DNA of 32,000 bases from Clostridia bacterium (GCA_017541375.1 JAFXZE010000005.1:213919-245918), one strand, 5' to 3'. Positions 1 through 18,289 are shown, counted from the first letter of the stretch. The notes: generated from the letters alone by a model not told the origin. Translations and numbers: made by a program.

Positions 1-3000
1 TTTAGTTGGAATAATAGAATTTTCACCATCGTATTTTTCTTGAGTTTCCCAATGTATTCTACAATCATCACAAATCGATATCACATTCCGTGGATCTGCA
101 ATTTTGTAGAATGTTTGACTAAATATGTCGCTATCTATATAGTTTGTGCTATATACATTCTCACCAATCTTTATTTGAGCAGATATTACATTTCTTGAAT
201 TGTCAGATAAATCTGTAAATCTATAAACTTCATTTGTTGTTTGAATAGATGTAAGTGCGTTTGCGTTATTGGTATAGTTAATTGTGATGTTTTTTAATCC
301 AATTGGTAACTCATCATAACTCTCTCCATAACTCCACGCAAGCGCGCCATCATCATCTACCCAGAGTGATGTATTTAGACCGTTGTTTTCGTTTTTAGCA
401 ATGTCAGGCAATTTATAGATATTGTTTAATTCTTCTGACCAGCTACTATTTACTACCCTATTGCTAGTATTTCCCTTGTATCTAATTCTTACTCTTTGTA
501 GATTTACACCCTTAACATCCTCAACATCAGCAAAGTAGTATCTATATTGTCCGTCAATTTCTGACAAGCTTTTTAAACCTGCCCACAATAATTCACTCTC
601 TTCATCGGTGTCTTTAGTGTATTGCAATTGTAAATTATTGTCATAATTGTTATTTTTTGCCCATCGCAAAGTACCGTTAGCATAAATCAAGCTAGGAGTT
701 TTTGGCACAGTCAATTCATAAGCAAGTGAAACGTCACTTGAGAATGCTGGTTTTATATTTTCACTACTTGTAGCAGTGTTTCCTATAGCTTGCACTGTTA
801 AACTTGTATTTACATTATTTCCACTAGCATCCAATTCTCTCGAAGCGATAAAACGCGTTGATGGGCTTTCTCTGGATATTACAAATTCGTTTTCACCACC
901 ATTTTCAGTATAGGTAATGACAAATTTACTAGTGTAATTATCAAAAGCCAAATCTCCATCATTTCTAGTACCAAAATCAAATTCACCATCCACTATGCCA
1001 ATATTTTGTGGAGCAACAAGCTTTACTACATCTGTCACCTCAGAGAACTCACTAGATAGATATGTGTTGAAATATTCATTAATTATTGTGCCATAAATAT
1101 TGGATGCTCCGCCTATCAATCTAGTTTTCAATTGGTAATTACCTGCATCTATACCCGTAATTGGTTTTTCATAAAGACTTGTTTCAATGCTATTTATGGA
1201 TATGTTATATTCTTGTGCAGAAGATTTAAATACAAAACTATAACTATTCGCCCCTTCCACATTTTTCCAGCATAACACACCATTTCTTACACTCCACTCA
1301 CCAGCTGTATTGTAATCTCCAAAGTTTAGTGGAGTCAATCTTACAAAAACTTGATCAACTATAGTTTCCGGTGAAGAAATGTAAGTACCCAAGTTTCCTA
1401 TTGCCTGAATTTTTACTACAAAGCCCTGATAATTAGCTAATTCACCAAAACCATTTTCAATTAGTTTTGTAGAATAAGTCTTAGAGAGGCCTATAAAGTC
1501 TGCAATGGTAGTTTGCACTTTATTATTCTCATCTATTACCCCATTGCATACTGGAATGAATGACAAATTCAATGTAGAACCTGCAGAATTTGGATCTGAC
1601 TTTAAAAATACTAGATTTCCTTCAGAATCAACTCGCACCTGTGGCGCGTTGTATATAATGCCTCGAGTAGTAGCCCCCTTGCTAACTAGAATACTCACCT
1701 CATCAACATTTACCAAATTAGACTTCGTGACAAGAGTAAATTCCAATTCTCCACCTTCAAAAGCAACTCCTAAAATCTCCTCTATATCAGCTAGTTTTAT
1801 AGTGTATCTATCATCATTTTGAGTTACGTAAGCTGTATTAAGGGTGTTTTCCCTAGATACAATATCACTAATTGTATACACATGGTCATTTCCCGAATAT
1901 GTATATTTTATGTTTAAATCATACAAGTCTGTTATATTGCTCGATAACCAATCCCTAAGGGCTGCTTTTCTCCATGTAAGGATAGGTGGAGCAAGTCTTC
2001 CATCACCTTCAGTTACACTTTCTCTAGCTAAAGCAACTGCTTGAGGCTTTGGCAATCTTTCAAAGCTATACGCATTGCTAAAATCACCATCTATATATAC
2101 TCCAGACCCCTCTCCCTTATAGCCTCTTGCTTTTAGTTTTACAATGTATCTTCCCGCTTGACTAAATTGAGTCAAATCAAATTGGGTCATATTAGTTTCA
2201 TATGTATTTGTAATCAAATCTGGAGTGATTACACTTATCAAATATTTATTTGGTTGTGTAACACCTAAATAACTCCATGTCAACTTTTCACCATCCATAC
2301 TTAGTGCTATATTAGCTAATTGTGTCCATTTGATGATGTTTATTGACGAACTCCCTACACGATAGCTTACTCCGTCTATAGTATATCTATCACTATATTT
2401 ACTACTCAATACTGACTCAATATCACATATAGCCTGCACCTGTATATCGAGTATCTTTCCATTTAATATCCCATTAAACTCAGCAAGATCAGTTGATGTT
2501 TGCCCACCGGTTAAAATTTGGGTAGTTATGGTATTATCGGTCTTGTTAGTTATTTTTATGCTGTATGTATCTACATAAACTAAGTCTTCATCATTTAGAT
2601 ATGAAACTGAATTCCATACAATTTTCCCATCAATTATCTCTACTGTAGGTGTGTCCAGTTGCTCAAAATTTATCTCATCACTAACCTTACATTTTAGCAC
2701 TTCATCATTTCCGTTTGGATATACACTCATAGAGTATCTACCTGAGTTTGAATTCATAATAGACGACAACGAGTATTTTAGATAGTCTTCGCCCTCAATC
2801 ACATCAGCAATTAAATCTTCCTCATCAATATCTAAATCTACTACTGTTTCAGTTTCTCCACCTTTACTGCGAATAATGACTACTCTATATGATGTTGTGT
2901 TTTCAGTTTTTTTCCATTTAGCACTCAACACCCCATCTTCATTATCCACACTTAGTCCAGCCACTTTGCTGCATTGACTAACTGATAGTTCATTACTCCA

Positions 3001-5823
3001 CGCAGAATTTAATACATATATTTCACCACTTGTTGGATCATTCACATCAAAAGGAATCGATTGGTTGGAATTTGATTGAACTACACTTCTCACCTGCATA
3101 ATAGTGTTGTTCTCTATTCCATACGAAAATTCATAATATGTTGCGGTTTCTCCAATTAGTTCATTCTCATATTTTAGTTCATAAGCAATATCTACTTTCC
3201 CAACAATCGCTTCTGGAGTAACACTCTCCCAAACCAGTTGTCCACTATTTACAAAAAGCGTTGGAGTACCCAGTTTAATAACAAACATTCCCGCACTTTG
3301 TAATCCATCTAAGAAATATACTTGTTTGCCATTATCCATAGTATATGACTTATCCACATTGGTCGGCGTTTGTAAAGCTGTGATTTTTATTTTAAACAAC
3401 TCCGCATCATATAATCCAGTATCATTTATAAAGTTTTCTATAGCCTCAGATATGTCATCAATAGAAGATATATATTCATGTCTAGATTCATCTCCACTAG
3501 CAATTAAAACCTCATAACTAGAAACATTTAACGAAATATTTGTACCAACTCTAATTAAGTCAAATTTTAGTTCTCCTCGTTCTACCCCAAGATTTGTTGG
3601 CATTGGATAACGCTTTACAAAAATTTCTTTAGTCGCACTAGGTATCAAAATCGTATCTTCACTGTCACTATTTGGTGTGATACGAATTGAAATACCATAT
3701 AAATCGTCATCATTAAAGTATGTGTTGTTATCTAAGATAAAATCATAAAATTCTTCATTAAATGAAATATTTTCGTCATATGGCAGATTTTGCACTATTT
3801 CTTGATTAATCCTAATCTCAAAATTTATTCCAAATTCACTATAATTTGTTTCTAAATCCTCTTCATCTGGCAAGGTGACATTATTCCATTTCCATACCAA
3901 ACTTGGATTTTCATGTATTCCTGTTTCTATAGCTGTATTTTTAAATTGAAAATCCTCTATGCTAGCCAATCTTAAAAATCTGTTTGATACTGCCGCATCA
4001 GATTTTGCAAATCCGCTTTGATTTACTGAAACCTCACTTCCGTTAGGCCATGCTACAATTTTTAGGTAATTGTAACCATCATACCATTTACTATTTTCAT
4101 CAGACAAGATTATTCCAAATCTTGTTTCTTCACTTACAGCGGATTCATATCCAGAATAAATCAATCTGTCACTTTCCGAAAGAATGTCATCGATAGTGTT
4201 ACCAATATACACTTGATAGAAACACTCTTGCATTACACTATTTGCTTTTGCTTTGTCCCAAGACAATATTCCGCCATTATTTTCTGCATTTCGAGTGTAT
4301 AAGATATTTTCCACCATATCGAGCTGAATTAATGCAGGTGTTTCACTACACTCACTATCTACATAGTAAACATCAGCTATCGCATTCTTTCTTGCCATTG
4401 TGTAGATGTAAATATCTCTCTTAGAATATTCACTTTTTTGTAAAATAGTCCCTGGTTGATTAGTTTCGATATCACTAAAGTTGATTTCAAATTGATTCGG
4501 TTCAATTTGTTTTACTTCATATGTCTTGATAACCACACTCTCTGTAGCATCTATCGGGTCTATTACCGTATATTTAAATTCTAGTACATACCCTTGAGCA
4601 TATTGCACAGCATCCCAACTTAATTGCTCTCCACCATTAGCTATATTTCTCACAACCAAGTTTTGTGGCGCACTCAATTGACTAATTCTTACAGCATTAC
4701 TCATACCAGCGCCGCAGCAAAATATATGAGAATCACTACTATTATTCCAATCAAGTGTTTGAGATTTAATTGCTACAGTAAGTCGATAAGTATCATCTAC
4801 CATATTCTGTGGCACATTAAAGCACGCATAATACTTATCATCATCAGGGCACTTTATGACCTTAGCCTCATTAAAATATTCTTTCCATTTAGCAATATTT
4901 GGATCCGTCACATCAATAGGTGAACCTATTACATTGTTTAGCGAGCTTACAACATTTAATTCGTAAAAATCGCTAACATGCCCTTTACTAGTATCCTCTT
5001 CACCTTCTTTAGCTATCAAATCAAGTAATAACGGATTTATGCTAAAACGAACCTTAAAAAACTCATTAAATTCAGAATCAACTTCACAAGGAGAAACGGG
5101 CACATTATCACCAAGAGAAGTGTACCCAGGCCCCATACCAAAATCAGCTAATCTCACAAGAGCAAGATCTGTAGGCGCACTCAATCTCATAAAACGATAG
5201 ATAGATGAAGTGGGTGAATCCAAATAGCTAGTCTTATTTCCTAAGGCTTGTATAGTGACTTCGTACTGTTTGTCCACATCAAATCTAGCATATTTAGTAT
5301 AGACTGTTTTATCATTTATGACTTCTTCGCCACCAAGCGGTTGAATGTTTAACTGATATGTAGGTCTATAATAGCTGCCACTAGATACTAAGGAAGCCTC
5401 CCACAACAATTCACCACTTGAAGCGTTCATTGTTAATCCTGTAGGAGCGCTAAGAGTAATCGCCTCTTTTACCACACGCACCTTTATAGTGGTTTTGATA
5501 TTTGAATTTGCTGTCGAAATAACTTCTATGGTTGTGTTTCCCTCACTAACCGCACTCACAAGTCCTGTGTCACTTACTCTAGCAATATTAGAGTTTTTAC
5601 TTTCAAATTTTACCGTCTTTACAGTTGCATTTGATGGCACAATATTATATACAATTTGTTCTGTAGCGCTAGTTCTATCTGCTGAGAGTTCTATCTCATT
5701 ATTTTCCACATTGATAAAACCTACCGTTACATATTGCTCCGTAGCTACGGTTACGCCACCACAGCTTGCCAGTACTGGCGTAAATATTAGTGCTAGTAAC
5801 AATAACCATTTTTGTTTTAGCAT
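1..5823 (-). CDS. Giant cell-surface lipoprotein with its C-terminus beyond the window start (at least 1941 aa). It has a signal peptide with lipobox, a Big_2 (bacterial Ig-like) domain, and a long series of FN3-like modules.
   Basis: This ORF is absent from the supplied track because it has no stop inside the window. I read every plus-strand triplet in register 1,4,7... from 1 to 5823 and found no TTA, CTA or TCA (minus-strand stops). The first upstream in-frame stop is TTA at 5839-5841. The ATG is the complement of 5821-5823, with AAGAGG about 10 nt upstream. The N-terminus is MLKQKWLLLLALIFTPVLASCGG (lipobox L-A-S-C). A Big_2-like stretch reads VPSNATVKTVKFESKNSNIARVSDTGLVSAVSEGNTTIEV. FN3-like module starts recur, e.g. 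ITLSAPTGLTMNASSGELLW and QLSAPQNLVVRNIANGGEQLSWDAVQYAQGYVLEFKYT. Confidence 0.85.
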   Translation of the reverse strand, partial: MLKQKWLLLLALIFTPVLASCGGVTVATEQYVTVGFINVENNEIELSADRTSATEQIVYNIVPSNATVKTVKFESKNSNIARVSDTGLVSAVSEGNTTIEVISTANSNIKTTIKVRVVKEAITLSAPTGLTMNASSGELLWEASLVSSGSYYRPTYQLNIQPLGGEEVINDKTVYTKYARFDVDKQYEVTIQALGNKTSYLDSPTSSIYRFMRLSAPTDLALVRLADFGMGPGYTSLGDNVPVSPCEVDSEFNEFFKVRFSINPLLLDLIAKEGEEDTSKGHVSDFYELNVVSSLNNVIGSPIDVTDPNIAKWKEYFNEAKVIKCPDDDKYYACFNVPQNMVDDTYRLTVAIKSQTLDWNNSSDSHIFCCGAGMSNAVRISQLSAPQNLVVRNIANGGEQLSWDAVQYAQGYVLEFKYTVIDPIDATESVVIKTYEVKQIEPNQFEINFSDIETNQPGTILQKSEYSKRDIYIYTMARKNAIADVYYVDSECSETPALIQLDMVENILYTRNAENNGGILSWDKAKANSVMQECFYQVYIGNTIDDILSESDRLIYSGYESAVSEETRFGIILSDENSKWYDGYNYLKIVAWPNGSEVSVNQSGFAKSDAAVSNRFLRLASIEDFQFKNTAIETGIHENPSLVWKWNNVTLPDEEDLETNYSEFGINFEIRINQEIVQNLPYDENISFNEEFYDFILDNNTYFNDDDLYGISIRITPNSDSEDTILIPSATKEIFVKRYPMPTNLGVERGELKFDLIRVGTNISLNVSSYEVLIASGDESRHEYISSIDDISEAIENFINDTGLYDAELFKIKITALQTPTNVDKSYTMDNGKQVYFLDGLQSAGMFVIKLGTPTLFVNSGQLVWESVTPEAIVGKVDIAYELKYENELIGETATYYEFSYGIENNTIMQVRSVVQSNSNQSIPFDVNDPTSGEIYVLNSAWSNELSVSQCSKVAGLSVDNEDGVLSAKWKKTENTTSYRVVIIRSKGGETETVVDLDIDEEDLIADVIEGEDYLKYSLSSIMNSNSGRYSMSVYPNGNDEVLKCKVSDEINFEQLDTPTVEIIDGKIVWNSVSYLNDEDLVYVDTYSIKITNKTDNTITTQILTGGQTSTDLAEFNGILNGKILDIQVQAICDIESVLSSKYSDRYTIDGVSYRVGSSSINIIKWTQLANIALSMDGEKLTWSYLGVTQPNKYLISVITPDLITNTYETNMTQFDLTQFSQAGRYIVKLKARGYKGEGSGVYIDGDFSNAYSFERLPKPQAVALARESVTEGDGRLAPPILTWRKAALRDWLSSNITDLYDLNIKYTYSGNDHVYTISDIVSRENTLNTAYVTQNDDRYTIKLADIEEILGVAFEGGELEFTLVTKSNLVNVDEVSILVSKGATTRGIIYNAPQVRVDSEGNLVFLKSDPNSAGSTLNLSFIPVCNGVIDENNKVQTTIADFIGLSKTYSTKLIENGFGELANYQGFVVKIQAIGNLGTYISSPETIVDQVFVRLTPLNFGDYNTAGEWSVRNGVLCWKNVEGANSYSFVFKSSAQEYNISINSIETSLYEKPITGIDAGNYQLKTRLIGGASNIYGTIINEYFNTYLSSEFSEVTDVVKLVAPQNIGIVDGEFDFGTRNDGDLAFDNYTSKFVITYTENGGENEFVISRESPSTRFIASRELDASGNNVNTSLTVQAIGNTATSSENIKPAFSSDVSLAYELTVPKTPSLIYANGTLRWAKNNNYDNNLQLQYTKDTDEESELLWAGLKSLSEIDGQYRYYFADVEDVKGVNLQRVRIRYKGNTSNRVVNSSWSEELNNIYKLPDIAKNENNGLNTSLWVDDDGALAWSYGESYDELPIGLKNITINYTNNANALTSIQTTNEVYRFTDLSDNSRNVISAQIKIGENVYSTNYIDSDIFSQTFYKIADPRNVISICDDCRIHWETQEKYDGENSIIPTK

Positions 5824-6168: not shown

Positions 6169-7311
6169 ATGGAAAAAAACATTGATTATTACTTAAACAA
6201 AATCACACAAAATCGAATCATTCGTGTGATTGCCACACTACCAAAACCTGAAATTGAATTCAAAAAGGCTGAGGTGGATATCCTCCCCAATATGGCTCGC
6301 ATCACATACTACACCCCTACCCAAGTTTTTCACAAAACTATGGATTGCGACCTATCTTTGCTTGCGCACACTTTACTAAAAAGTTTTACACAACTACATT
6401 TTTTTGATGAAGCAAATGAATATATGTTAAAAACCACCAAGCGTAGTGGTGTACTATATAACTGTGTAAAAGCCAACATTACGCCCCCTACCGCCAGCCA
6501 AAATAGAACCAAAAACTACATTCTCCCACAAGGCACATTTATTCCGCCCCTTGTGGATATGGGCATACTCACCAATAGTGGCCGAATAGTGAGTAAAATG
6601 GGAGACAAATTCCGCCAAATTAATCGCTTTTTAGAAATCATTGATGACAGCCTAAAAGAGCAAAAAATCAACCGACTGAATGTGGTTGACTTTGGCTGTG
6701 GAAAATCTTATCTTACTTTTGTATTGTACTATTATCTTACACAAATCAAAAAAATTGACACTTTTATAATAGGTCTAGATCTCAAGGCTGATGTAATAGA
6801 AAACTGCAATCAAACCGCCCTAAAATATGGATATAAAAACCTACATTTTGAACAAGGCGACATATCCAACTATTCTACTAAAATGCCTGTTGACATGGTG
6901 ATTTCACTACATGCATGTGATACGGCGACCGACTTTGCTTTGTTTAATGCTATCAAATGGGGAGCAAAATACATTTTTTCAGTTCCATGTTGTCAACACG
7001 AACTAAATACTCAAATTTACTCTCCCGACCTATCCATTGTTACTCGCTACGGTGTCGCACAAGAACGAATTTGCGCTCTATTTACTGACATAATTAGATG
7101 CAACCTCCTCGAAGCTCTTTCATACAAAACACAACTACTCGAATTTATCGACTTTGAACACACTCCTAAAAATCTACTTATTCGCGCGACACTATCCAAC
7201 ATTACCAGCAACATCCGTTCCGCTAGACTTAAAGAAGTAACCGATATTATCAAACAATTTCACCTTTTCCCAAAACTCTATTCCCTACTCAAAAACGATC
7301 ACTTGATATAA
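6169..7311 (+). CDS. Class I SAM-dependent methyltransferase (Methyltransf_32-like), substrate unknown
   Basis: The track ORF 6133..7311 starts at TTG. I prefer the ATG at 6169 (MEKNIDYY), which is preceded by AAAAGGAAA. SAM motif I is VVDFGCGKSYLTF, and the LHACDTATD motif is typical of this methyltransferase family. Confidence 0.8.
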   Translation: MEKNIDYYLNKITQNRIIRVIATLPKPEIEFKKAEVDILPNMARITYYTPTQVFHKTMDCDLSLLAHTLLKSFTQLHFFDEANEYMLKTTKRSGVLYNCVKANITPPTASQNRTKNYILPQGTFIPPLVDMGILTNSGRIVSKMGDKFRQINRFLEIIDDSLKEQKINRLNVVDFGCGKSYLTFVLYYYLTQIKKIDTFIIGLDLKADVIENCNQTALKYGYKNLHFEQGDISNYSTKMPVDMVISLHACDTATDFALFNAIKWGAKYIFSVPCCQHELNTQIYSPDLSIVTRYGVAQERICALFTDIIRCNLLEALSYKTQLLEFIDFEHTPKNLLIRATLSNITSNIRSARLKEVTDIIKQFHLFPKLYSLLKNDHLI

Positions 7312-7492: not shown

Positions 7493-10156
7493 TTATTCAC
7501 TTCTTAGCGCCACGACTGGGTCTCGCTTTGCTGCGACTCGTGCCGGCACTACACCAGCTATCAGTGTAAGTACCACACTGATTAGTATCAATAATAGACA
7601 TGGCACAAACGGCAATTGCGCTAGGCCTGATATGCCTGCAAGCGTTGCTAAAATTATGTTGATCGGAATCAACAGTAAAAATGCCACCAATATCCCCAGT
7701 AGTCCACTAAACAAACCTATCATTCCACTTTCCGCCGTAAATACATGCTTGATATCTCGCTTTGATGCACCTACGCTACGCAATACTCCAATTTCCTTTG
7801 TGCGCTCTATTACTGAAATGTAGGTAATTATCCCTATCATTATCGAGCTAACTATAAGCGAAACTGACACAAACGCAATCAATACATATGAAATGGAGGT
7901 AATTATGGTGGATAAACTACTCATCAGCGTACCTGCAAGGTCAGAATAAGATATTTTATTCTCTTTGGAAACAGTATTGTTATATTCTTCGATAAAGGCT
8001 TTTATTTTGTTTTTGCCCTCAAAAGAAACTGCATACAAACTAATAGCTGTAGGCAAACTTAGGTCGATTGGCTTTATTACATCTTTGTTATTTACTGTGG
8101 TAGCTTTAGCATTATGATAGTCTATCATACTCTTAGCAAAGGCAGGAGAATAGTTTAGCCCAACACTTAGTACATTAGTCCCAGCATCCTCTTTTAGTCG
8201 TAATATTCCCACCACTTTTACAACATTTTCGCACATATATAGCGCATCATCTAAAACTTCATCTTTCTTTGCTTGCTCAGCTGCTGTGGCTTCATAATAA
8301 TTTTTGTACACTGTTTCAGTTTCTGTTGATGCTATTGTGTCTTTCACTACATAGTCACTTATATTCAATACTTTAAATTCCTTACCTAACACATCTTCGT
8401 ATTTTATACTAAAAGTTTGTTTTTTACCACGAAGCATGTTGTTAATGTAAGCATTCATTTCATCATCTGAAATAAGCCCTAATGCATATAAAATTGAGTC
8501 ATCAAGCTCACTATTTTTATCTAATACTAAATAAACATCTTTAGCATCTTTTACTTTTTCACCTGCTATCAAATCGTAGTTTTGTTCTATCAAAGTCTCA
8601 TTATCTATCATCTCACTAACAGCTCCAGTGCTAGTAGTACGATAACTATTTAGATTGATGCTACCTTGAGTAAGTTTTGAAATTATCGTCATAATCTGCA
8701 TCAAGTTTAAACTATAACGCCCTTCCTCTTGCAACTTTTCACTAGCCTCTTTACTTACATACCCCTCTACAATAGGATAGAGTGTTTCTCCTTCAATGGG
8801 TGTAACTATATATTCTTCACTTCCACTAGGCGCTATATTTACCCTCGCTACATAACTAAAATAATTTAGCGAGTACATTATCGCCATTTTAAACAAAGCC
8901 GAACTCCGTGGATAAACCCCTGCCTGACTAGCCTCTTCTATATCACTTCGATAAAACTCTAATCCCAAGTCATATGAGCATCCAATAGCTGTCAGCACAT
9001 CTTTGAGTTTATCCTTATTTAAATTGAGATATCTATAGAATGGAGCTAGGTCATTTAGAGTTGAGCTTGATGCAACTGAATCTAATAACCCCAACAACTG
9101 TTCTTTAGGGTAGATTTTGTCTTCATCATGCACTGTTTTTTCCTCATTATTGGAGGGCATAAACATCGCCGTCAGTGCTGACTGAAGGTCGATACTTTTG
9201 GTTTGAATCGTGACTGGATAATTGGCTAAAGATTGCTCTTGCATATTATTTACATAATTATTAAATCCATTACTAATCGCCAGCACCAAAGCTATTCCGA
9301 TTATTCCAATAGCCCCCGCAAAAGACACCAAAAAGGTGCGCGCTTTTTTGGTCATCAAGTTTCTGAGGCTTAGCATCAGTGCTGTAAATATCGACATTTT
9401 AGTCTTTGGGGTGGATTTTTTCTTCTTGCGTGCTGTAGTAACAGGTTGTTCTGTTGGCTTTACCACCTCAATCGCTGATTTATAAGGATTTGAGTCATCA
9501 ATTATTTTTCCATCCAGCAATTTTACTATTCGGGTACTATATTTTTCCGCAAGTTCTGGGTTGTGCGTCACCATCACAATCAGTTTGTCCTTAGAAATCT
9601 CCTTGAGTAGCTCCATAATCTGCACACTAGTAACAGTATCGAGTGCCCCTGTAGGCTCGTCAGCTAAGATAATCTCGGGGTCATTTACCAGCGCTCGTGC
9701 AATTGCCACCCTCTGCATCTGGCCACCACTAAGTTGATTGGGCCTATATTTTAGTTTATCGCCTAACCCCACCTTTTTTAGTACCGCAGCAGCTCGTTTC
9801 TTTCGTTCTTCCTTACCAATTCCAGATAAAGTGAGGGCTAACTCCACATTTTCGAGTACTGTTTGATGAGGAATTAGATTATAACTTTGAAAAACAAAGC
9901 CTACCGAGTGGTTTCGATAACTATCCCAATCCTTGTCTGTATAAAGCTTGGTTGACTTACCATTTATCACCAAATCACCACTATTATAGCGGTCTAATCC
10001 TCCCACAATATTGAGTAAAGTGGTCTTTCCACAACCACTTGGTCCAAGTATGGACACAAACTCACTTTGGCGAAATTCTATAGAAATCCCCTTCAACGCC
10101 TCCACATGCTGATCCGCCGTTTTATAAATCTTTTTAATCTTATCGAGTTTTAACAT
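7493..10156 (-). CDS. Fused ABC transporter: N-terminal ATPase plus C-terminal FtsX/MacB-type permease with a large extracytoplasmic domain
   Basis: Walker A is GPSGCGKTT, the signature is LSGGQMQRVAIARAL, and Walker B is IILADEPTGALD. A TM segment and a roughly 450-aa loop follow. The C-terminal FtsX-like 4-TM block contains VLRSVGASKRDIKHVFTAES. Confidence 0.9.
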   Translation of the reverse strand: MLKLDKIKKIYKTADQHVEALKGISIEFRQSEFVSILGPSGCGKTTLLNIVGGLDRYNSGDLVINGKSTKLYTDKDWDSYRNHSVGFVFQSYNLIPHQTVLENVELALTLSGIGKEERKKRAAAVLKKVGLGDKLKYRPNQLSGGQMQRVAIARALVNDPEIILADEPTGALDTVTSVQIMELLKEISKDKLIVMVTHNPELAEKYSTRIVKLLDGKIIDDSNPYKSAIEVVKPTEQPVTTARKKKKSTPKTKMSIFTALMLSLRNLMTKKARTFLVSFAGAIGIIGIALVLAISNGFNNYVNNMQEQSLANYPVTIQTKSIDLQSALTAMFMPSNNEEKTVHDEDKIYPKEQLLGLLDSVASSSTLNDLAPFYRYLNLNKDKLKDVLTAIGCSYDLGLEFYRSDIEEASQAGVYPRSSALFKMAIMYSLNYFSYVARVNIAPSGSEEYIVTPIEGETLYPIVEGYVSKEASEKLQEEGRYSLNLMQIMTIISKLTQGSINLNSYRTTSTGAVSEMIDNETLIEQNYDLIAGEKVKDAKDVYLVLDKNSELDDSILYALGLISDDEMNAYINNMLRGKKQTFSIKYEDVLGKEFKVLNISDYVVKDTIASTETETVYKNYYEATAAEQAKKDEVLDDALYMCENVVKVVGILRLKEDAGTNVLSVGLNYSPAFAKSMIDYHNAKATTVNNKDVIKPIDLSLPTAISLYAVSFEGKNKIKAFIEEYNNTVSKENKISYSDLAGTLMSSLSTIITSISYVLIAFVSVSLIVSSIMIGIITYISVIERTKEIGVLRSVGASKRDIKHVFTAESGMIGLFSGLLGILVAFLLLIPINIILATLAGISGLAQLPFVPCLLLILISVVLTLIAGVVPARVAAKRDPVVALRSE

Positions 10157-10187
10157 AACTCACATCCTATTTTTTTGTTTATGATTT

Positions 10188-10216
10188 ATTGTAACATACT
10201 TTTTAAAATTCTCCAA
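10188..10216 (-). promoter_or_regulatory. Putative promoter of the ABC transporter gene
   Basis: On the minus strand: -35 TTGGAG (10216-10211), a 17-nt spacer, and an extended -10 TGtTACAAT (TACAAT = 10193-10188). Confidence 0.4.
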
Positions 10217-10350
10217 ATGTTTATAAAAAAATTTTTTTAAAAATTTACAAAAAATAACACATATGCCTGTTAATTTTAGAACCACAAAAAAAGCCCTAAA
10301 CGAATGGTTTTTAGGACTTTGGGGTTATTGATTAGTTAGATTGCCATATC

Positions 10351-10391
10351 AGACATAAATAGCCCTCCTCGCAATGACAATATTTATGTCT
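10351..10391 (-). repeat. 11-bp perfect inverted repeat overlapping the stop codon of the 10390 gene
   Basis: AGACATAAATA (10351-10361) pairs with TATTTATGTCT (10381-10391) around a 19-nt loop. No U-run follows it. A weaker hairpin plus a T-run on the minus strand lies at about 10284-10317. Confidence 0.5.
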
Positions 10392-11031
10392 ACTTTTTGG
10401 ATGCACTGATCAAGTAACAATAGTTATATATATGTGGATAGCTTAACTTAATATTTTGATAATATTTTGCAAAAATATTCTTTACTTTCATAGGCGTGGC
10501 ATTTTTATTTTTGCAATTTTTACTCTCTTTATTAAACCAATTGAGAATTAGCACATTTTCGCATATCTTAGACAACTTTTCTACCAATTTTTCGATGTCC
10601 ATAATACACATTAACACATCTTTACATACCAAAAAATCATACTTTTTATCCAATTTTTTAGTATCTAATTTTTCAAGATCAGCTAAAACAAACTTAGTTT
10701 TTTTGCTCTTTAGTAAGCGGGACTTTAAATAGTCTTCAATGTCCACGCATGTAATGGAATTTACCTTTTCATTTTTTGAAATATAGTTTGTAAGTAGCCC
10801 ATATTCACAGCCTATTTCTAGTACATTTCCATATATGCCATCAAATAATTGATGAGCTTTGTGGGCGTTAAAGTTTATCGCCTCTGTTTTGTCGATAGTA
10901 TGAGCCTGTTTACACTTGGGACAAGTCAACTCCAGCGAAAAATCATCCGACCAGCTATATGGGTGGAGCTCTGATAAAAACGAAACTTCCTCACCACACC
11001 TACATTCATATCCTACAATATTGTTTTTCAT
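10390..11031 (-). CDS. Zinc-ribbon plus class I methyltransferase-fold protein with a degenerate SAM motif
   Basis: The N-terminus carries CRCG...CPKCK (a 4-Cys ribbon). The motif I position reads VLEIGCEYG instead of GxGxG. Acidic motif II is VCVDIED. The RBS is GGAGGAAAGTT-ATG. The start lies 18 nt after the upstream gene, so the two are probably co-transcribed. Confidence 0.65.
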   Translation of the reverse strand: MKNNIVGYECRCGEEVSFLSELHPYSWSDDFSLELTCPKCKQAHTIDKTEAINFNAHKAHQLFDGIYGNVLEIGCEYGLLTNYISKNEKVNSITCVDIEDYLKSRLLKSKKTKFVLADLEKLDTKKLDKKYDFLVCKDVLMCIMDIEKLVEKLSKICENVLILNWFNKESKNCKNKNATPMKVKNIFAKYYQNIKLSYPHIYNYCYLISASKK

Positions 11032-11049
11032 AACTTTCCTCCATTTTTA

Positions 11050-11658
11050 TCAAAATTTTCTTATTTCTTCTAGTAGTTTGTTTTTGATGGTTTGTACATC
11101 GTTGTCGCCTGTAAAGTAATTAAAGTTTTCTTTCTCGATATTTTCGATTTTTTCAGACAACTTTTCACTCAAAACACTGCAATTTGCCTTTAGATTTATT
11201 AAAAATGTCTCAAATAACTCTTTGTTTAGTTTTATATTCAACTCAGTCATTATAGTACTATCTTGAAAATGTGTGTCCAGTTTGATATGTAGATACTTGT
11301 TATTTACAACGGACACCTTACTTTCGGGCGTAGTTTCTATGATAAAGTTTATTTTTCTACCATTCTTAACTATTTCATCAAAGCTTTCACCATAAAATGT
11401 CTTGTCATCCTCATCTTCTTGAGTGCCATCATACAAAACACTTTTCCTCCCCTCCAAAAAACCTTTCAAGTTCGATAACTCCGTAAAAATCCTAAATGTT
11501 TGTGAAAAAGCATTTTGCTCAACTGTAAAATCAAAGGAAAACAAGATGTACGGTCCCCATACGTAAGTACAAGCCAAATCACAATGTAAATTTGACACAA
11601 CCAATCCTACATCATTTGATAAATCTTTATAAACTATTCTTTCTTCAGTACCATCCAT
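11050..11658 (-). CDS. Hypothetical protein with no recognisable motif
   Basis: The track ORF is 11050..11664. The AGGAG at 11670-11666 is only 1 nt from the first ATG but 7 nt from the ATG at 11658 (MDGTEE), so I prefer 11658. The gene is co-oriented between metG and the methyltransferase-like gene. Confidence 0.55.
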   Translation of the reverse strand: MDGTEERIVYKDLSNDVGLVVSNLHCDLACTYVWGPYILFSFDFTVEQNAFSQTFRIFTELSNLKGFLEGRKSVLYDGTQEDEDDKTFYGESFDEIVKNGRKINFIIETTPESKVSVVNNKYLHIKLDTHFQDSTIMTELNIKLNKELFETFLINLKANCSVLSEKLSEKIENIEKENFNYFTGDNDVQTIKNKLLEEIRKF

Positions 11659-13676: not shown

Positions 13677-13705
13677 TACTCCACTCCTAATTAATTCTAA
13701 CTTTG

Positions 13706-13734
13706 ATTATAACATAATTTTTTTGTTTTATCAA
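13706..13734 (-). promoter_or_regulatory. Putative metG promoter
   Basis: On the minus strand: -35 TTGATA (13734-13729), a 17-nt spacer, and an extended -10 TGtTATAAT (TATAAT = 13711-13706). Confidence 0.5.
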
Positions 13735-13772
13735 TGTTTTGAGGTCTAAAACAAAATTTTTTTGATTTTCAA

Positions 13773-13801
13773 TTGACTATTACTCAAACTTATGTTATAA
13801 T
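13773..13801 (+). promoter_or_regulatory. Putative promoter of the tRNA-Gly/tRNA-Leu unit
   Basis: -35 TTGACT (13773-13778), a 17-nt spacer, and an extended -10 TGtTATAAT (TATAAT = 13796-13801). The tRNA starts 10 nt later. Confidence 0.6.
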
Positions 13802-13811
13802 GAAACTATAT

Positions 13812-13885
13812 GCGGGCGTAGCTCAGTGGTAGAGCGCCAGCCTTCCAAGCTGGTTACGAGGGTTCGATTCCCTTCGCCCGCTCCA
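13812..13885 (+). tRNA. tRNA-Gly (anticodon UCC), CCA encoded
   Basis: I folded the cloverleaf by hand. The acceptor stem is GCGGGCG/CGCCCGC and the D arm is GCTC-AGTGGTA-GAGC. The anticodon stem CCAGC/GCTGG carries the loop CTTCCAA. The T arm is GAGGG-TTCGATT-CCCTT, with discriminator T and CCA. Confidence 0.95.
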
Positions 13886-13930
13886 TTAGGAGCATAGCGA
13901 CTATGAGTGGTCTGTGCACTCACTTTCATC

Positions 13931-13942
13931 TCGCCCGCTCCA
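13931..13942 (+). repeat. Duplicate of the last 12 nt of tRNA-Gly
   Basis: TCGCCCGCTCCA at 13874-13885 (the tRNA 3' end) is repeated exactly at 13931-13942, 7 nt before tRNA-Leu. Confidence 0.8.
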
Positions 13943-13949
13943 TTTTTTT

Positions 13950-14032
13950 GCGAATGTGGCGGAATTGGTAGACGCGCTAGGTTCAGGTCTTAGTGGGAAA
14001 CCATGGGGGTTCGAGTCCCTTCATTCGCACCA
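13950..14032 (+). tRNA. tRNA-Leu (anticodon CAG), class II with long variable arm, CCA encoded
   Basis: The acceptor stem is GCGAATG/CATTCGC and the D loop is GAATTGGTAGA. The anticodon stem CTAGG/CTTAG carries the loop TTCAGGT. The variable arm is 11 nt. The T arm is GGGGG-TTCGAGT-CCCTT, with discriminator A and CCA. Confidence 0.92.
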
Positions 14033-14038
14033 CGTTAA

Positions 14039-14073
14039 GACTAAATCGAATTTCGATTTAGTCCTTTTTATTT
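14039..14073 (+). terminator. Intrinsic terminator after tRNA-Leu (inside the left edge of the islet)
   Basis: GACTAAATCGAA-T-TTCGATTTAGTC is a near-perfect palindrome (14039-14063), followed by CTTTTTATTT. Confidence 0.7.
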
Positions 14074-14107
14074 AACTTTTAAAAAAATATACTTTTATAA
14101 AAATTTA

Positions 14108-14116
14108 TGTTATAAT
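14108..14116 (+). promoter_or_regulatory. Extended -10 element upstream of the helicase-nuclease gene
   Basis: TGTTATAAT lies 22 nt upstream of the ATG at 14139. There is no good -35. Confidence 0.35.
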
Positions 14117-14138
14117 CTAATTTATTGAAAGAATAAAT

Positions 14139-16856
14139 ATGTCAAATGGTGATTTTATGAAAGAATCAGAAATTTTAATATGTCATTATAATAATGGTAA
14201 ATGGTGCGATGTTACAAAAAATGTAGAGTTGTTTAGCGCAGAGAATAATGCATGGAGAGTAAAATTTAAAAGTTCCGACAAGTTTTATTATATTTCTTCT
14301 CGAAATATGAGAGTATTTGATAAGCCAAAAGAAGTCGAATTTGTTGATCTCTATTATAAACAATCCCCCTGTTTAAATGTAAAAAAATTATTACTTTTTA
14401 ATGACAAAGTATATAAAATTTTTTATAATAATGGTTATACTTGTTTTACATCCCCACAAGAGATAAAAATAATTAAAGATACACTTAAAGAAGATGAAAA
14501 AGCCGCTGGGGTTATGGCATATTACAGAAAAGTTGTTAAAGAAACAGCTAAAACTGAAGAAGATAAGTTTATGATTTCTCAGTTTGATGATATTAGTTAT
14601 GTTAATAATGACAGTGTATTATCTTTATACCTAAAGGGAAAATTGGCTAAGAGTAAAGAAAAATTAGAAATCCCCATAGTGTGCCCATTTGGATTAAACA
14701 TGAGCCAAGCAGATGCATTAAAAATGGCATTTGAAAATAGAATATCTATTATTGAGGGCCCTCCTGGAACCGGTAAAACCCAAACTATTTTAAATATTTT
14801 AAGTAACGCCGTTATACGTGGTAAATCAGTTGCTGTCGTATCAAACAACAATTCAGCCACAGACAATGTTTTTGAAAAATTAGAAAAATATGGTTATTCG
14901 TTTATTTGTGCTCAACTTGGTAATGCAGATAATGTTAATAGGTTTTTTGAAGAATGTGATTCAAGCATCCCGAAAATGCAAAAAGAAAATGTTGACATTG
15001 ATAAACTTAATAAATTGTATTCGAATCTTCCAAGTTATTTTGAAAAAGAAAACAACAAAAAGCAGATATTGAGCATGATTGATGCTCTTGATTTAGAATA
15101 TAAACATTTTTTATCAGATAATGAATCATTTGATTTTGATGAATACAAATTTAAAAATATAAATGTACTACCTAATAATGTTCAAGAAGTAATTGTTAAA
15201 TTAAAAGAAAAAGAGAAGATTGGATTTTTTGAAAGACTATTTATTAAAATAAAACTTAGAGTTAAAACAAAATTTTTTAAAATAGATAAAGATAAAGAAA
15301 TTTTACTTCTTCAAAACTTATATTACTTGACTAAAAAGAATTACTTAAAGAAGCAAATTGAAGAAATAGATAAATATATGAAAGATGAATCTTTAGAAGA
15401 TAAAACAAATGATTTTAGAGATTTGTCAAATAAGTATTTCAAAAATAAGTTAATCGAAATGTATTCTAATAAAAATAGAAGTTATTATGATAGATCTAAT
15501 TATAAGAAATGCTTCTCTGATTTTATTAAAAATTATCCGGTCATTCTAAGTTCCACATACGCTTTAGCCAAATGTTCCCCCAAAGATTATTTATTTGATT
15601 ACTTAATAGTTGATGAATCGTCACAAGTTAATATGGCAAGTGCAATTTTATCAATGCAAATAGCTATTAATATTATTGTAGTTGGTGATATAAAACAATT
15701 ACCACAAATTGATGATTCAACATTTAATCAACGTAATGAGCAATTATTAAAAAAGTTTAATGTGTCTAAAGCATATAGCTATCAAGGAAATAGTATCATG
15801 AGTAGTTTACTATCTCTTTATGGTGATAGTATTCCTAAACAAATGTTAAAGGAACATTATAGATGTGCACCAGAAATAATAAATTTCTGTAACGAAGAAT
15901 TTTACGATAATCAATTAATTGTTTATACAAAACCCAAAAAAAATGTAACAAGTATGAAAGTTATAAAAACTGTTGCAGGTAATTTTGCAAGAAAAAATCC
16001 TGATGGTTCTGGCCAATATAATCAACGCGAGATTGATGAAATAGAAAATTTAATTAACACCGAATCGATGGAAGATATAGGTATTATTACACCATATAGA
16101 TATCAAGCTAAACTTATACAGGATAAATTTGGTAATAAAGTAGATGCAAGTACTATTCATAAATTTCAAGGAAGGGAAAAAAAGTCAATTATTTTTTCAT
16201 CCGTAGTAAATGATGTTAATGACTTTGTTGATAATGATAATTTAATCAATGTCGCAGTATCTAGAGCGGTAGATAATTTTATATTAATTACATCTGATAA
16301 AGTAGCTAATTCAAAAACAGGTGTGTTAGCTGACTTAATTAACTATATTACATATCATGAAGATTTTGGAAAAATGGACGAAAGCAAAATTAAATCCATT
16401 TATGATATTTTGTATAGCGATTATGAGGAAGAGTTAAATAAATTTAGAAAAAATCATCCATCAAAAGACTTTGATACAGAAAACATTACAAAAGAATTAT
16501 TAAAAAGCATCCTCAGTGATACCAAATACAAAAGTTTATGGTTTAGAATGCATGTATCACTTAGTGATTTTGTTAGAAATAATAATCATGATTTAACTGA
16601 TGAAGAATATAAATTCTACATTAATCCTAAAGCACATGTTGATTTTTTAATCTATAATAAAATGAGCAGAAAACCTGTTTGTGTAATAGAAGTTGATGGT
16701 GTTGCTTTCCATGAACAACAAGAAAAACAGAAAGAGCGAGACGTTAAAAAAGATTCAATATTAAAAAAGTCCGGCATTCCAATTTTAAGATTAAGAACAA
16801 ATGAAAGCAACGAAGAAAAACGAGTAAAAGATTTTATTGATTTTCAAATAAATTAA
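14139..16856 (+). CDS. SF1B (Upf1/DNA2-like) helicase fused to a C-terminal Vsr-like PD-(D/E)xK nuclease domain (DUF2726/DUF559 type), with an unassigned N-terminal domain of about 180 aa
   Basis: Helicase motifs are I GPPGTGKT, II LIVDESSQ, III VVGDIKQLPQI, IV EHYRCAPEIINFCNEEFY, V IHKFQGREKKSIIFSSV and VI NVAVSRA. A K/E/N-rich insertion of about 220 aa lies between motifs I and II. The C-terminus reads HVDFLIYNK...VCVIEVDGVAFHE...RDVKKDSILKKSGIPILRL. An alternative start is the ATG at 14157 (MKESE). Confidence 0.85.
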   Translation: MSNGDFMKESEILICHYNNGKWCDVTKNVELFSAENNAWRVKFKSSDKFYYISSRNMRVFDKPKEVEFVDLYYKQSPCLNVKKLLLFNDKVYKIFYNNGYTCFTSPQEIKIIKDTLKEDEKAAGVMAYYRKVVKETAKTEEDKFMISQFDDISYVNNDSVLSLYLKGKLAKSKEKLEIPIVCPFGLNMSQADALKMAFENRISIIEGPPGTGKTQTILNILSNAVIRGKSVAVVSNNNSATDNVFEKLEKYGYSFICAQLGNADNVNRFFEECDSSIPKMQKENVDIDKLNKLYSNLPSYFEKENNKKQILSMIDALDLEYKHFLSDNESFDFDEYKFKNINVLPNNVQEVIVKLKEKEKIGFFERLFIKIKLRVKTKFFKIDKDKEILLLQNLYYLTKKNYLKKQIEEIDKYMKDESLEDKTNDFRDLSNKYFKNKLIEMYSNKNRSYYDRSNYKKCFSDFIKNYPVILSSTYALAKCSPKDYLFDYLIVDESSQVNMASAILSMQIAINIIVVGDIKQLPQIDDSTFNQRNEQLLKKFNVSKAYSYQGNSIMSSLLSLYGDSIPKQMLKEHYRCAPEIINFCNEEFYDNQLIVYTKPKKNVTSMKVIKTVAGNFARKNPDGSGQYNQREIDEIENLINTESMEDIGIITPYRYQAKLIQDKFGNKVDASTIHKFQGREKKSIIFSSVVNDVNDFVDNDNLINVAVSRAVDNFILITSDKVANSKTGVLADLINYITYHEDFGKMDESKIKSIYDILYSDYEEELNKFRKNHPSKDFDTENITKELLKSILSDTKYKSLWFRMHVSLSDFVRNNNHDLTDEEYKFYINPKAHVDFLIYNKMSRKPVCVIEVDGVAFHEQQEKQKERDVKKDSILKKSGIPILRLRTNESNEEKRVKDFIDFQIN

Positions 16857-17010
16857 GATTTATGTAATTTAGAAAGATTTGAATTCTTGCAAAATGTTTT
16901 TATTTGATTTTTGATTAGTTATAATCTTACTTCGTGCTAGATTATAACACAAAAAAGTCTAAACCAAATATATAAGTATTCAATTTAGACTTAACTGGTG
17001 TACCAGAATA

Positions 17011-17032
17011 AAAAGGCTTTTAGCCTTTTTTG
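17011..17032 (+). terminator. Intrinsic terminator downstream of the helicase-nuclease gene
   Basis: AAAAGGCT-TTT-AGCCTTTT followed by a T-run. Confidence 0.55.
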
Positions 17033-17039
17033 TTATGGT

Positions 17040-17185
17040 GCAATGACATGAATTAGCATGAGTAAGTAAAACGCACTAGGGGCTCGAACAAGCATGTCTT
17101 GAGCAATAGTCCTGTGAACTATTGCTAGTGCTTCGTCATGATAGTGAAGCATAGCGAAACGGCGTGAGTCCCTTCATTCGCACCA
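17040..17185 (+). pseudogene. Degenerate 146-nt tRNA-Leu-like element with insertions at the D loop, anticodon loop and variable arm. Its last 20 nt are identical to tRNA-Leu.
   Basis: Collinear blocks match tRNA-Leu. These are GCAATG vs GCGAATG, GAATT, ACGCACTAGG vs ACGCGCTAGG, and CTAGTG vs CTTAGTG. The T arm has the right geometry, and 17166-17185 equals 14013-14032. Details are in the findings. Confidence 0.5.
17166..17185 (+). repeat. Exact 20-nt repeat of the tRNA-Leu 3' end (attR-like)
   Basis: GAGTCCCTTCATTCGCACCA is identical to 14013-14032. Confidence 0.9.
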
Positions 17186-17190
17186 AATTT

Positions 17191-17212
17191 AGAGCTTCGG
17201 CTCTTTTATTTT
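17191..17212 (+). terminator. Intrinsic terminator after the tRNA-Leu-like element, probably the ancestral tRNA operon terminator
   Basis: AGAGC-TTCG-GCTCT followed by TTTATTTT. Confidence 0.65.
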
Positions 17213-17398: not shown

Positions 17399-17539
17399 AT
17401 GGATAAAATTTATAACGTTGATAAAATTAATCAAATGAGATGCATAGCTGGCTTAGTAATGAGTAGTATTATGGCAATATTAGCTTTTTTGGCACTAGTC
17501 TTAAACATTGCAAACTTTTTTAGACTAGAAACTCCATAA
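17399..17539 (+). CDS. 46-aa single-TM ORF, probably the severed N-terminus of the following membrane protein
   Basis: The ATG at 17399 follows AGGTGAAAA. The product is MDKIYNVDKINQMRCIAGLVMSSIMAILAFLALVLNIANFFRLETP, ending at TAA 17537-17539. It is in the same reading frame as the 17546 ORF. Confidence 0.35.
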   Translation: MDKIYNVDKINQMRCIAGLVMSSIMAILAFLALVLNIANFFRLETP

Positions 17540-17545
17540 GCAGGT

Positions 17546-18289
17546 ATGGGAACTTTCCGAATGTTTACCACACTGTCAAATATATTGGTTGGAATTGCAG
17601 CCTTACTCTGTATCCCTTTTCAAATAGAAGGATTACGAAAAAAACACTATCATTTACCAAAATGGATTGTGATTTTATTATACATCGGTACAGTTGGGGT
17701 AGCTCTGACGTTCTTTATCTCCATAACTACTATATCTATTGCAAAAGGTTTTGTGGATACAATGTTTTATAGGTCAAACATTTTTTTACACACCATAAAT
17801 CCAATTTTTGCGATTGTATTATTCACTTTTATAAATTGCGACCATAAAATAGAATTCAAAAAATCATATTTAACATTTATTCCAGTATTAATTTATGCAT
17901 TACTTTATACTATAATGGTCTTTTTTATAGGAGAAGATAATGGTGGTTGGCGCGACGTATACAAATTAAATGCTTACATTCCTTGGCCTATTACTTTTGC
18001 GATAATGTTTTTGATCGTACTAGGAATCGCAAATTTACTTCGCTTTTTGCACAACAAAAAATATATTCACACAGAAAATTGTATCATTAAATATTATCAG
18101 CTATCCCCTGATTTTGATAAAAAATCAATCGAAGATGCCATTTCTGTATTAGCTCAAAAACAAACCATAAAGTCAAAAGATACTATACAAATTCCCGTAA
18201 AGATATTTGAGATACTAAAGCAACGCTACAAAAGTAATCAAACCATAGACCAACTCGCAACTATGTACATAAAAGCATTACCCAAATAA
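17546..18289 (+). CDS. Multi-pass membrane protein (tentatively Pr6Pr/AIG1-like) with a soluble C-terminal tail
   Basis: It has about 5 hydrophobic helices and an FRMFTTLSN motif near the start. The RBS before 17546 is poor (AGCAGG only 1 nt from the ATG), which fits an original start at 17399. Confidence 0.7.
   Translation: MGTFRMFTTLSNILVGIAALLCIPFQIEGLRKKHYHLPKWIVILLYIGTVGVALTFFISITTISIAKGFVDTMFYRSNIFLHTINPIFAIVLFTFINCDHKIEFKKSYLTFIPVLIYALLYTIMVFFIGEDNGGWRDVYKLNAYIPWPITFAIMFLIVLGIANLLRFLHNKKYIHTENCIIKYYQLSPDFDKKSIEDAISVLAQKQTIKSKDTIQIPVKIFEILKQRYKSNQTIDQLATMYIKALPK

Follow-up and report, generated by a model that had tools for sequence, protein, structure and literature searches.

In a stretch of 32,000 nucleotides (nt) from a Clostridia bacterium (GCA_017541375.1 JAFXZE010000005.1:213919-245918; hereafter the window, from whose first letter all positions are counted), the interval 14033-17185 was inserted at the 3' end of a tRNA-Leu(CAG) gene and carries a single gene, whose product joins a Upf1-like helicase of superfamily 1B (SF1B) to a Vsr-like nuclease and keeps the conserved catalytic residues of both. 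The gene belongs to a mobile family, several of whose members lie among defence genes, and it has lost the partner gene found next to its closest relatives. By its sequence features the interval qualifies as a real, decayed tRNA-integrated islet, and its gene is a probable candidate for a single-gene defence helicase-nuclease. We consider the combination of the two, a decayed islet without an integrase that carries a candidate anti-phage or anti-plasmid effector, to be rather probable.

Both the direct repeats and the empty site of a tRNA-integrated islet were found, together with an atypical base composition. The 3'-terminal 20 nt of tRNA-Leu, GAGTCCCTTCATTCGCACCA, occur in exactly two copies in the window and delimit an insert of 3,153 nt, as an earlier note on this DNA had pointed out; none of 100 dinucleotide-preserving shuffles produced a match, even with up to two mismatches allowed. 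Directly past the distal copy stands the compact terminator that the note had also described, formed by the hairpin AGAGCTTCGGCTCT (17191-17204) and a T-run. The note had predicted an empty site in which tRNA-Leu is followed at once by the terminator of 17186-17212, and such a site exists in a contig of a sister species (L034). The exact pattern of the predicted junction gave 0 matches in genome contigs and 0 in metagenome contigs, and the site was reached instead through a search for homologues of the adjacent methionyl-tRNA synthetase (MetRS). At 74% identity, that enzyme has a single relative on a readable contig, namely L034, while the next ones reach at most 60%. A MetRS search of genome contigs in the GTDB-representative collection returned only an irrelevant Clostridium match; the collection seems not to include the host lineage.

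The layout of L034 is that of the window (MetRS, divergent promoter, tRNA-Gly, tRNA-Leu(CAG)). Its tRNA-Leu end, ...CATTCGCACCA, runs directly into AATAGAGCTTCGGCTCTTTTTTCATCAGG, which is the window sequence from 17186 onward, so that the tRNA is contiguous with the distal flank and AATAGAGCTTCGGCTCTTTT comes directly after it. With 14033-17185 taken out, the alignment of the window to L034 is colinear over the whole stretch that begins with the MetRS promoter and ends with the terminator. Past the terminator, gene content and synteny differ between the two species, and therefore only the junction can be compared. From the junction and the colinear alignment it follows that 17191-17212 is the ancestral terminator of the tRNA operon, and that the 3,153 bp either entered at the 3' end of the tRNA or, in the sister lineage, were lost by precise excision. 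Within the species of the window, the interval is present at 99.5-100% identity in all 21 fetched loci that reach it (L001-L021). The polymorphism of occupied and empty sites in relatives, whose lack the earlier note had named as a point against an islet, thus does not occur within the species.

The helicase-nuclease gene has a GC content of 0.264, and of 0.178 at third codon positions (GC3), against GC3 values of 0.23-0.35 in the 17 other open reading frames (ORFs) of the window (mean 0.300, standard deviation 0.041; z of about -3). Sliding GC content drops to 0.23-0.29 inside the interval, and the sign of the GC skew flips there; the impression that the islet is more AT-rich than the flanking genes is thus borne out in numbers. 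Between the repeats, the helicase-nuclease ORF (14139-16856, plus strand) is the sole one of at least 90 amino acids (aa). No tyrosine or serine recombinase is encoded at the borders, and the 309-nt right arm holds only ORFs of at most 39 aa. Because it has no recombinase gene, the interval is classed as a remnant or a cis-mobilisable islet. It resembles the cis-mobilisable elements (CIMEs) of streptococcal integrative and conjugative elements and degenerate tRNA islands in being a short insert between direct repeats of a tRNA 3' end that lacks a recombinase and carries only cargo, and it differs from them in that neither a cognate integrase nor a parent element was found for it.

The right arm is strongly structured. 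The region 17036-17190 folds at -51.1 kcal/mol (z = -4.1), and in its outer stem an imperfect inverted copy of the attachment-site (att) core, TGGTGCAATGA (11 nt, 17037-17047), pairs with the right repeat. The arm (16857-17185) matched nothing in phages or plasmids and no Rfam family, its hairpin pattern had no match in metagenomes, and the searches yielded neither a parent element nor an RNA family for it. The 20-mer GAGTCCCTTCATTCGCACCA matched only an unrelated phage tRNA in IMG/VR. A minus-strand tRNA pseudogene considered for the arm was dropped, as neither ARAGORN nor Rfam calls anything there. At the left end, the element brought an intrinsic terminator (14039-14073; placed at 14039-14063 by the terminator scan) that now closes the tRNA operon. 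A hairpin at 17010-17030, about 150 nt past the stop codon, is a possible terminator of the helicase gene.

The protein combines the parts that the earlier note had recognised (domain and residue numbers refer to the 905-aa ORF). Pfam assigns AAA_11 to residues 186-522 (6.6e-24), AAA_12 to 552-719 (3.6e-24) and DUF2726 to 787-900 (3.8e-17), all above the gathering cut-offs; with 62.6 bits against a cut-off of 24.7, the nuclease is a member of DUF2726 (PF10881). Sub-threshold matches to DUF559 and MTES_1575 fall on the same C-terminal stretch, where the string HVDFLIY...VIEVDGVAFHE...GIPILRL spans residues 833-885. Sequence matches in the PDB are IGHMBP2, DNA2, UPF1 and Sen1, and the helicase has all the marks of a Upf1-like SF1B enzyme: AAA_11 with AAA_12, motifs I-VI and the fold of Upf1, IGHMBP2 and Dna2. 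An AlphaFold model, built from an alignment of 48 relatives, has a mean predicted local distance difference test score (pLDDT) of 89.3 and a predicted template-modelling score of 0.83, and Foldseek matches it to IGHMBP2, SETX/Sen1, Upf1, Dna2, Aquarius, nidovirus nsp13 and ZNFX1 (E from 1e-22 to 1e-15). Pfam, PDB and Foldseek thus agree that the call of an SF1B helicase with a Vsr-like DUF2726 nuclease was correct.

The note's K/E/N-rich insertion is indeed present after Walker A, although it measures about 190 aa (roughly residues 273-465) rather than about 220. It is modelled as all-helical, with long helices at 287-327, 384-413 and 419-442, and in the model this insertion in the first RecA domain corresponds to an enlarged stalk of the Upf1 type. 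Among the 48 relatives, which extend down to 36% identity, GPPGTGKT, D492/E493/Q496, G516/D517/Q520, H573-R575 and Q677-R679 are invariant in the helicase, and H833, D835, E851, D853, H858, D868 and K871 in the nuclease. The window protein keeps every one of the catalytic residues that are invariant in this set.

Residues 1-180, in which no motif had been recognised, are equally blank in Pfam, which places no family on 1-185. In the model, residues 13-112 (pLDDT 89) form about twelve short strands that build two small barrels, followed by helices. Foldseek gives this domain a weak similarity to tandem Tudor-, Agenet-, SH3- or KOW-like folds, with E values of at least 0.009 and a template-modelling (TM) score of about 0.2; homology to Tudor/Agenet/SH3-like domains was discarded as unusable at these values. 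When the domain alone was searched with phmmer against the full library, it matched 83 representative clusters and was N-terminal in all but one of the matches listed. The full-length proteins among these all have about 900 aa, and the remainder are mostly short, possibly fragments or split genes. No other architecture with this domain occurs among the matches listed, and on this comparison it appears to be specific to the family.

The earlier note had described one ORF of 905 aa with its own extended -10. The ORF is indeed the only long one; its start, however, is likely the ATG at 14157 (M7), which yields 899 aa, stands behind a GGTGA ribosome-binding site, and agrees with the relatives and with the 899-aa NCBI model. 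The extended -10 is present as well (TGTTATAAT, 14108-14116), although the -35 is poor, and it was because of this weak -35 that the consensus promoter scan did not list the site. The helicase promoter is 77% identical to the promoter of the tRNA operon over 31 nt. A near-identical extended -10 block with the core TTATGTTATAAT is common to the MetRS, tRNA-operon and helicase promoters (13702-13723, 13771-13801 and 14086-14120), and so the foreign gene would be driven by a promoter of the host type. The strain variants of the gene, of 877 aa and 898 aa (L007/L016, L020), are all in frame; in the 877-aa variant, 84 nt of the helical insertion have been deleted between direct repeats of 15 nt (15280-15294 and 15364-15378).

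Upstream of the gene lies the trace of a lost neighbour. In all four of the closest relatives (70-82% identity), a partner gene of 245-248 aa stands 20-28 nt upstream of the helicase. Its proteins are 88-93% identical to each other; each carries a pair of zinc ribbons, ends in a PD-(D/E)xK domain and matches the PADLOC candidate PDC-S69 (1.5e-26). A tblastn search of the 32-kb window found no copy of it. The blastn homology between the window and the relative in L025 begins at 14128 (L025 6973; the partner stop codon of L025 is at 6979-6981), so that the homology upstream of the helicase start spans the spacer, the stop codon and the last two codons of the partner, and ends there. The extended -10 promoter lies directly upstream of this remnant, at the deletion junction. 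The simplest reading of this arrangement is that an operon of partner and helicase arrived, the partner was then deleted, and a promoter of the host type took its place. The statement that the islet has neither an integrase nor a partner gene is thus right for its present content, but the absence of the partner would be a secondary loss, and with it the single-gene status of the helicase secondary within its own clade. A 247-aa gene downstream of the islet was considered as the displaced partner and rejected, being an unrelated membrane protein.

This loss gives rise to the first alternative, that the helicase depends on its partner and, ever since that gene was deleted, has had no activity or has only been tolerated, as the orphaned half of a system and a fossil on a dead islet. 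The constancy and conservation of the partner in all four closest relatives speak for it, as does the fact that the window keeps only the partner's last codons, stop and spacer. We regard it as unlikely, since the ORF is intact with all its invariant catalytic residues, a consensus-like extended -10 promoter was acquired exactly at the deletion junction, and the strain variants preserve the reading frame. Moreover, relatives at 62% and 39% identity, and also one in Parabacteroides, are solitary, which means that the partner is not universally required. Finally, the partner resembles PDC-S69, a stand-alone candidate, and the two genes may therefore be independent neighbours.

The gene belongs to a large family whose conservation extends along the entire protein, and the family's members are annotated only as "DUF2726 domain-containing" or "AAA domain-containing" proteins. 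They occur in Bacillota, Bacteroidota and Pseudomonadota, including E. coli O157. The closest relatives, at 82, 80, 75 and 70% identity, are found in four unrelated loci (L041, L022, L024 and L025), and DNA homology to close relatives is limited to the coding sequence and the 29 nt upstream of it. Three observations argue for horizontal acquisition: the similarity of the helicase to these scattered relatives exceeds that of the neighbouring MetRS to any of its own, the DNA homology is confined in this way, and the composition is deviant. The islet flanks encode only MetRS, a methyltransferase, an ABC transporter and membrane proteins. At the loci of the relatives, genes of defence or restriction-modification (RM) type are neighbours in six of nine cases, five by PADLOC (L022, L024, L025, L028 and L040) and one by Pfam (L041, with Eco57I and ResIII); the other three are L030, L039 and L042 (whose neighbours were left out), and the sample is small and non-random. 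With AbiL, SoFic, RM and bSEFIR genes next to its relatives, the defence role that the earlier note had proposed is strengthened.

The same mobility could be read differently, with the helicase-nuclease acting as selfish cargo that excludes competitors of the carrying element or maintains it. The gene does travel on mobile DNA: its relatives lie on a contig with a MobL relaxase (L041), on plasmids, in tRNA and tmRNA islands, and in an insertion sequence (IS)-rich O-island of E. coli O157. Yet the window has lost the backbone of the element and kept the gene, equipped with a promoter; the neighbours of the relatives are defence genes and not genes of replication or transfer; and viral records hold few members, with one full-length relative in IMG/VR and two partial ones in phage records. 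We hold this explanation to be improbable, and it overlaps largely with the defence reading.

A housekeeping role would make the protein a DNA-repair or RNA-surveillance helicase-nuclease of Dna2, AddAB or Upf1 type that stands next to a tRNA gene by chance. Its core is homologous to Dna2, IGHMBP2 and Upf1, and the gene is fixed in the species. Against this stand its absence at the corresponding locus of the sister species, the occurrence of its closest relatives in four loci at higher similarity than MetRS shows to any relative, and its outlying GC3. The NCBIfam matches (IGHMBP2 family, ProA, PLuB, Hhe and RecD2) are moreover confined to the helicase core and far below their cut-offs (RecD2 57 against 500, IGHMBP2 144 against 349, Hhe NF042953 98 against 2000), and the protein falls far below every equivalog cut-off. 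It is not a housekeeping orthologue, in agreement with what the earlier note's reading calls for. We consider such a role very improbable, and essentially excluded.

Membership in known systems was assessed with PADLOC, NCBIfam, Pfam, BLASTP and the neighbouring genes. The PADLOC matches (MkoC 1.1e-56, MkoA 7.3e-45, PDC-S37 and Hhe) are confined to the helicase core. Hhe (Gao et al. 2020) resembles the window protein in joining an AAA_11/AAA_12 helicase to a C-terminal nuclease of the Vsr/restriction-endonuclease fold in one polypeptide and in its location in defence islands. Hhe itself has about 1,800-1,900 aa, an N-terminal DUF4011 and an MTES_1575 nuclease, whereas the window protein has about 899 aa, DUF2726 and a different N-terminal domain. 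Pfam finds no DUF4011 in it, and NF042953 stays at the score given above. A locus of a different species (L035, 15039-17947) carries, a few kb from MetRS, a true Hhe-like gene with DUF4011, AAA_11/12 and MTES_1575, which served as Hhe comparator; BLASTP against its product yields an alignment of no more than 276 aa, which lies in the second RecA domain and has 27% identity. Lacking DUF4011 and matching over this part of the core only, the window protein is not assigned to Hhe. Mokosh (Millman et al. 2022) has a related Upf1-like core, and its MkoC is likewise a single-gene helicase-nuclease fusion; its effector, however, is a nuclease of the PLD family, and the match here covers residues 186-740 only. 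Pfam finds no PLD match at E<=0.1 and the MkoC alignment ends at residue 732, so, without a PLD domain, the protein is not Mokosh.

The layout most similar to that of the window protein is CnuH of type III-B CoCoNuTs, in which a small N-terminal binding domain precedes a UPF1-like helicase that has a large helical or coiled-coil insertion immediately past Walker A and a directly fused Vsr-like PD-(D/E)xK nuclease (Bell et al., PMC10542128). CoCoNuTs are defined by an McrB-like GTPase (CnuB) and McrC (CnuC), to which type III-B adds CnuA (PMC10542128). Here, the N-terminal domain consists of beta-barrels and not of a winged helix-turn-helix (wHTH), and the modelled insertion is without an oligonucleotide/oligosaccharide-binding (OB) fold. 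The islet and its flanks hold neither McrBC genes nor CnuA, and for this reason the protein is not a CoCoNuT component. The earlier note had named Nhi (Bari et al. 2022) and Hna (Sather et al. 2023) as possible comparators, and these are likewise single-gene nuclease-helicase immunity proteins. The PADLOC model of Nhi (PDLC02372, 470 positions) does not match the window protein at E<=0.1, and in one of its relatives it matches Walker A only. In Nhi the nuclease occupies the N-terminus, and Hna belongs to the SF2 helicases, while the window protein is of SF1B with a C-terminal nuclease, a domain order opposite to that of Nhi. The two are therefore poor comparators; Hhe, Mokosh MkoC and CoCoNuT III-B CnuH are closer. 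By these comparisons, the window protein belongs to none of the four systems Hhe, Mokosh, Nhi and CoCoNuT. With corrections to the comparators, to the single-gene status of the helicase and on polymorphism within the species, the earlier note is upheld both in what it observed and in how it interpreted it. We found no experimental work on this architecture in the literature on DUF2726/PF10881. The protein is best described, to judge from these comparisons, as an uncharacterised but recognisable type of helicase-nuclease from a horizontally mobile family.

Under the defence reading, an element would have integrated site-specifically at the 3' end of tRNA-Leu(CAG), duplicating 20 nt and supplying a replacement terminator, and would then have decayed until its integrase was gone and one intact gene was left. 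In the protein, the N-terminal barrels and the stalk may bind or sense a nucleic acid or protein specific to the invader. ATP hydrolysis would power 5'-to-3' translocation, a property of the whole Upf1-like clade, on single-stranded DNA (ssDNA) or RNA, and the tethered Vsr-like nuclease would cleave the strand being tracked. The protein probably acts by itself, by analogy with the more distant solitary relatives, which appear to do so. In its most specific form this proposal makes the family an immune effector that is autonomous as a single polypeptide and separate from Hhe, Mokosh, Nhi and CoCoNuT, in which the N-terminal barrels and stalk recognise an invader cue and the Upf1-like motor feeds RNA or ssDNA to the Vsr-like nuclease, and which the window kept with a new promoter after the partner was deleted; in that full form we offer it tentatively, as a possible explanation.

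Several observations weigh against the defence reading. The N-terminal domain has no significant Foldseek match (best E 0.009, TM about 0.2), and its role as a sensor is a conjecture. An integrase, an excisionase and a clear recombination arm are all lacking in the islet, so that the mechanism of integration is deduced from the repeats alone. None of the curated defence models in PADLOC and NCBIfam covers the protein beyond the helicase core. With 21 of 21 loci occupied, the islet behaves as fixed in the species. Lastly, the closest clade always carries the partner gene, and given this constancy the window copy could be a disabled half-system.

Table 1. Positions of the islet features in the window, and loci of relatives of the helicase-nuclease
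Feature	Position	Strand	Basis and remarks
tRNA-Gly(UCC)	13812-13885	+	ARAGORN; Rfam 76 bits; first gene of the two-tRNA operon divergent from MetRS
tRNA-Gly 3'-end duplicate TCGCCCGCTCCA	13931-13942	+	45-nt spacer past the gene; outside the Leu islet
tRNA-Leu(CAG), intact	13950-14032	+	ARAGORN, Rfam; last 20 nt are the left repeat copy
Left direct repeat, attL-like core, GAGTCCCTTCATTCGCACCA	14013-14032	+	Exact match to right copy
Element-borne intrinsic terminator, 11-bp stem and T-run	14039-14073	+	Terminator scan; no counterpart at the sister locus
Helicase-gene promoter	14085-14116	+	Extended -10 TGTTATAAT at 14108-14116
Partner-helicase junction remnant	14128-14156	+	Last two partner codons and stop (GAATAA, 14131-14136), spacer, GGTGA site
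Helicase-nuclease gene	14157-16856	+	899 aa from M7 (likely start); mechanical ORF 14139-16856, 905 aa
Protein domains	residues 1-185; 186-720; 720-786; 787-900		N-terminal beta-barrel and helical; SF1B helicase; linker; DUF2726 nuclease
A/T-flanked GGC/GCC hairpin	17010-17030	.	Read from the sequence; not flagged by the terminator scan
Right arm, GC-richer, strongly structured	17036-17165	+	Fold; AGCATAGCGA at 17148-17157
Right direct repeat, attR-like core, GAGTCCCTTCATTCGCACCA	17166-17185	+	Exact match to left copy
Ancestral tRNA-operon terminator, displaced 3.15 kb	17191-17212	+	Abuts tRNA-Leu directly in sister contig L034
L041 neighbours			Eco57I and ResIII genes, MobL relaxase (Pfam)
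L022 neighbours			Island by tmRNA: methyltransferase, GmrSD/HNH, AbiLi/AbiLii
L024 neighbours			Small islet after tRNA-Glu, with SoFic
L025 neighbours			PDC-S41, HNH, MazG-like and NUDIX genes
L028 neighbours			SoFic/PDC-S04 (more distant relative)
L040 neighbours			bSEFIR and type IIG RM, Parabacteroides plasmid (more distant relative)
L039 relative	8489-11169		E. coli O157:H7 EDL933 record NZ_CP124741.1; 34% identity; 722-aa helicase-nuclease with the 171-aa ORF before it

In the E. coli O157:H7 relative (L039), a separate ORF of 171 aa precedes the helicase with a 4-nt overlap and may be the counterpart of the N-terminal domain; the pair sits in an IS-rich island by PAPS-reductase-like and ParB-like genes.

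The tRNA pair itself carries traces beyond those of the Leu islet. Besides the tRNA-Gly 3'-end duplicate of the window, L034 has three copies of the tRNA-Gly 3' end (3490-3640, minus strand), separated by spacers of 45-75 nt, and the first spacer between tRNA-Gly and its duplicate is homologous in the two species (window 13886-13942). These duplicates look like stacked att remnants left by older insertions, and the one in the window would show that the tRNA locus is a recurrent insertion site. The exact 10-mer AGCATAGCGA has only two copies in the 32 kb, at 13891-13900 and 17148-17157, which lie 31 nt before the Gly duplicate and 8 nt before the Leu duplicate, respectively; related AGC..AGCGA motifs are present in the spacers of L034. 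This 10-mer, possibly an arm site that related integrative elements have in common, suggests together with the Gly duplicates that such elements visited the tRNA pair repeatedly.

Downstream of the islet, a 46-aa ORF (17399-17539) and a 247-aa ORF (17546-18289) share the same frame with a single TAA between them, and the latter matches the MAGa3780 family (Mycoplasma-type) from profile position 53 onward, which points to a single membrane-protein gene (17399-18289) split by an in-frame stop; the split is kept in all contigs of the same species. The longest contigs of the host measure about 0.56-0.58 Mb (ERZ27256870 k141_646414, 558,765 bp, and the contig of an NCBI metagenome-assembled genome, 577,011 bp), and from their length the host genome may be small.

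Bacterial immunity repeatedly employs Upf1-like helicases that are fused to a nuclease or coupled with one, as in Hhe, Mokosh and CoCoNuT, and their triggers and DNA or RNA substrates are mostly unknown. The family described here is compact (about 900 aa), has a confident structural model, and occurs with and without a partner nuclease, which makes it convenient for two questions: which cue the N-terminal domain recognises, and whether the partner serves as an accessory or forms a system of its own. The locus further illustrates cleanly how a candidate defence gene can outlive its mobile element: the att repeats stay behind, together with the terminator that the element donated and a new promoter, whereas the integrase and the partner gene have disappeared. 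If the proposal holds, the window would be a natural experiment in which a helicase-nuclease that had lost its zinc-ribbon nuclease partner by deletion was retained under a new promoter.

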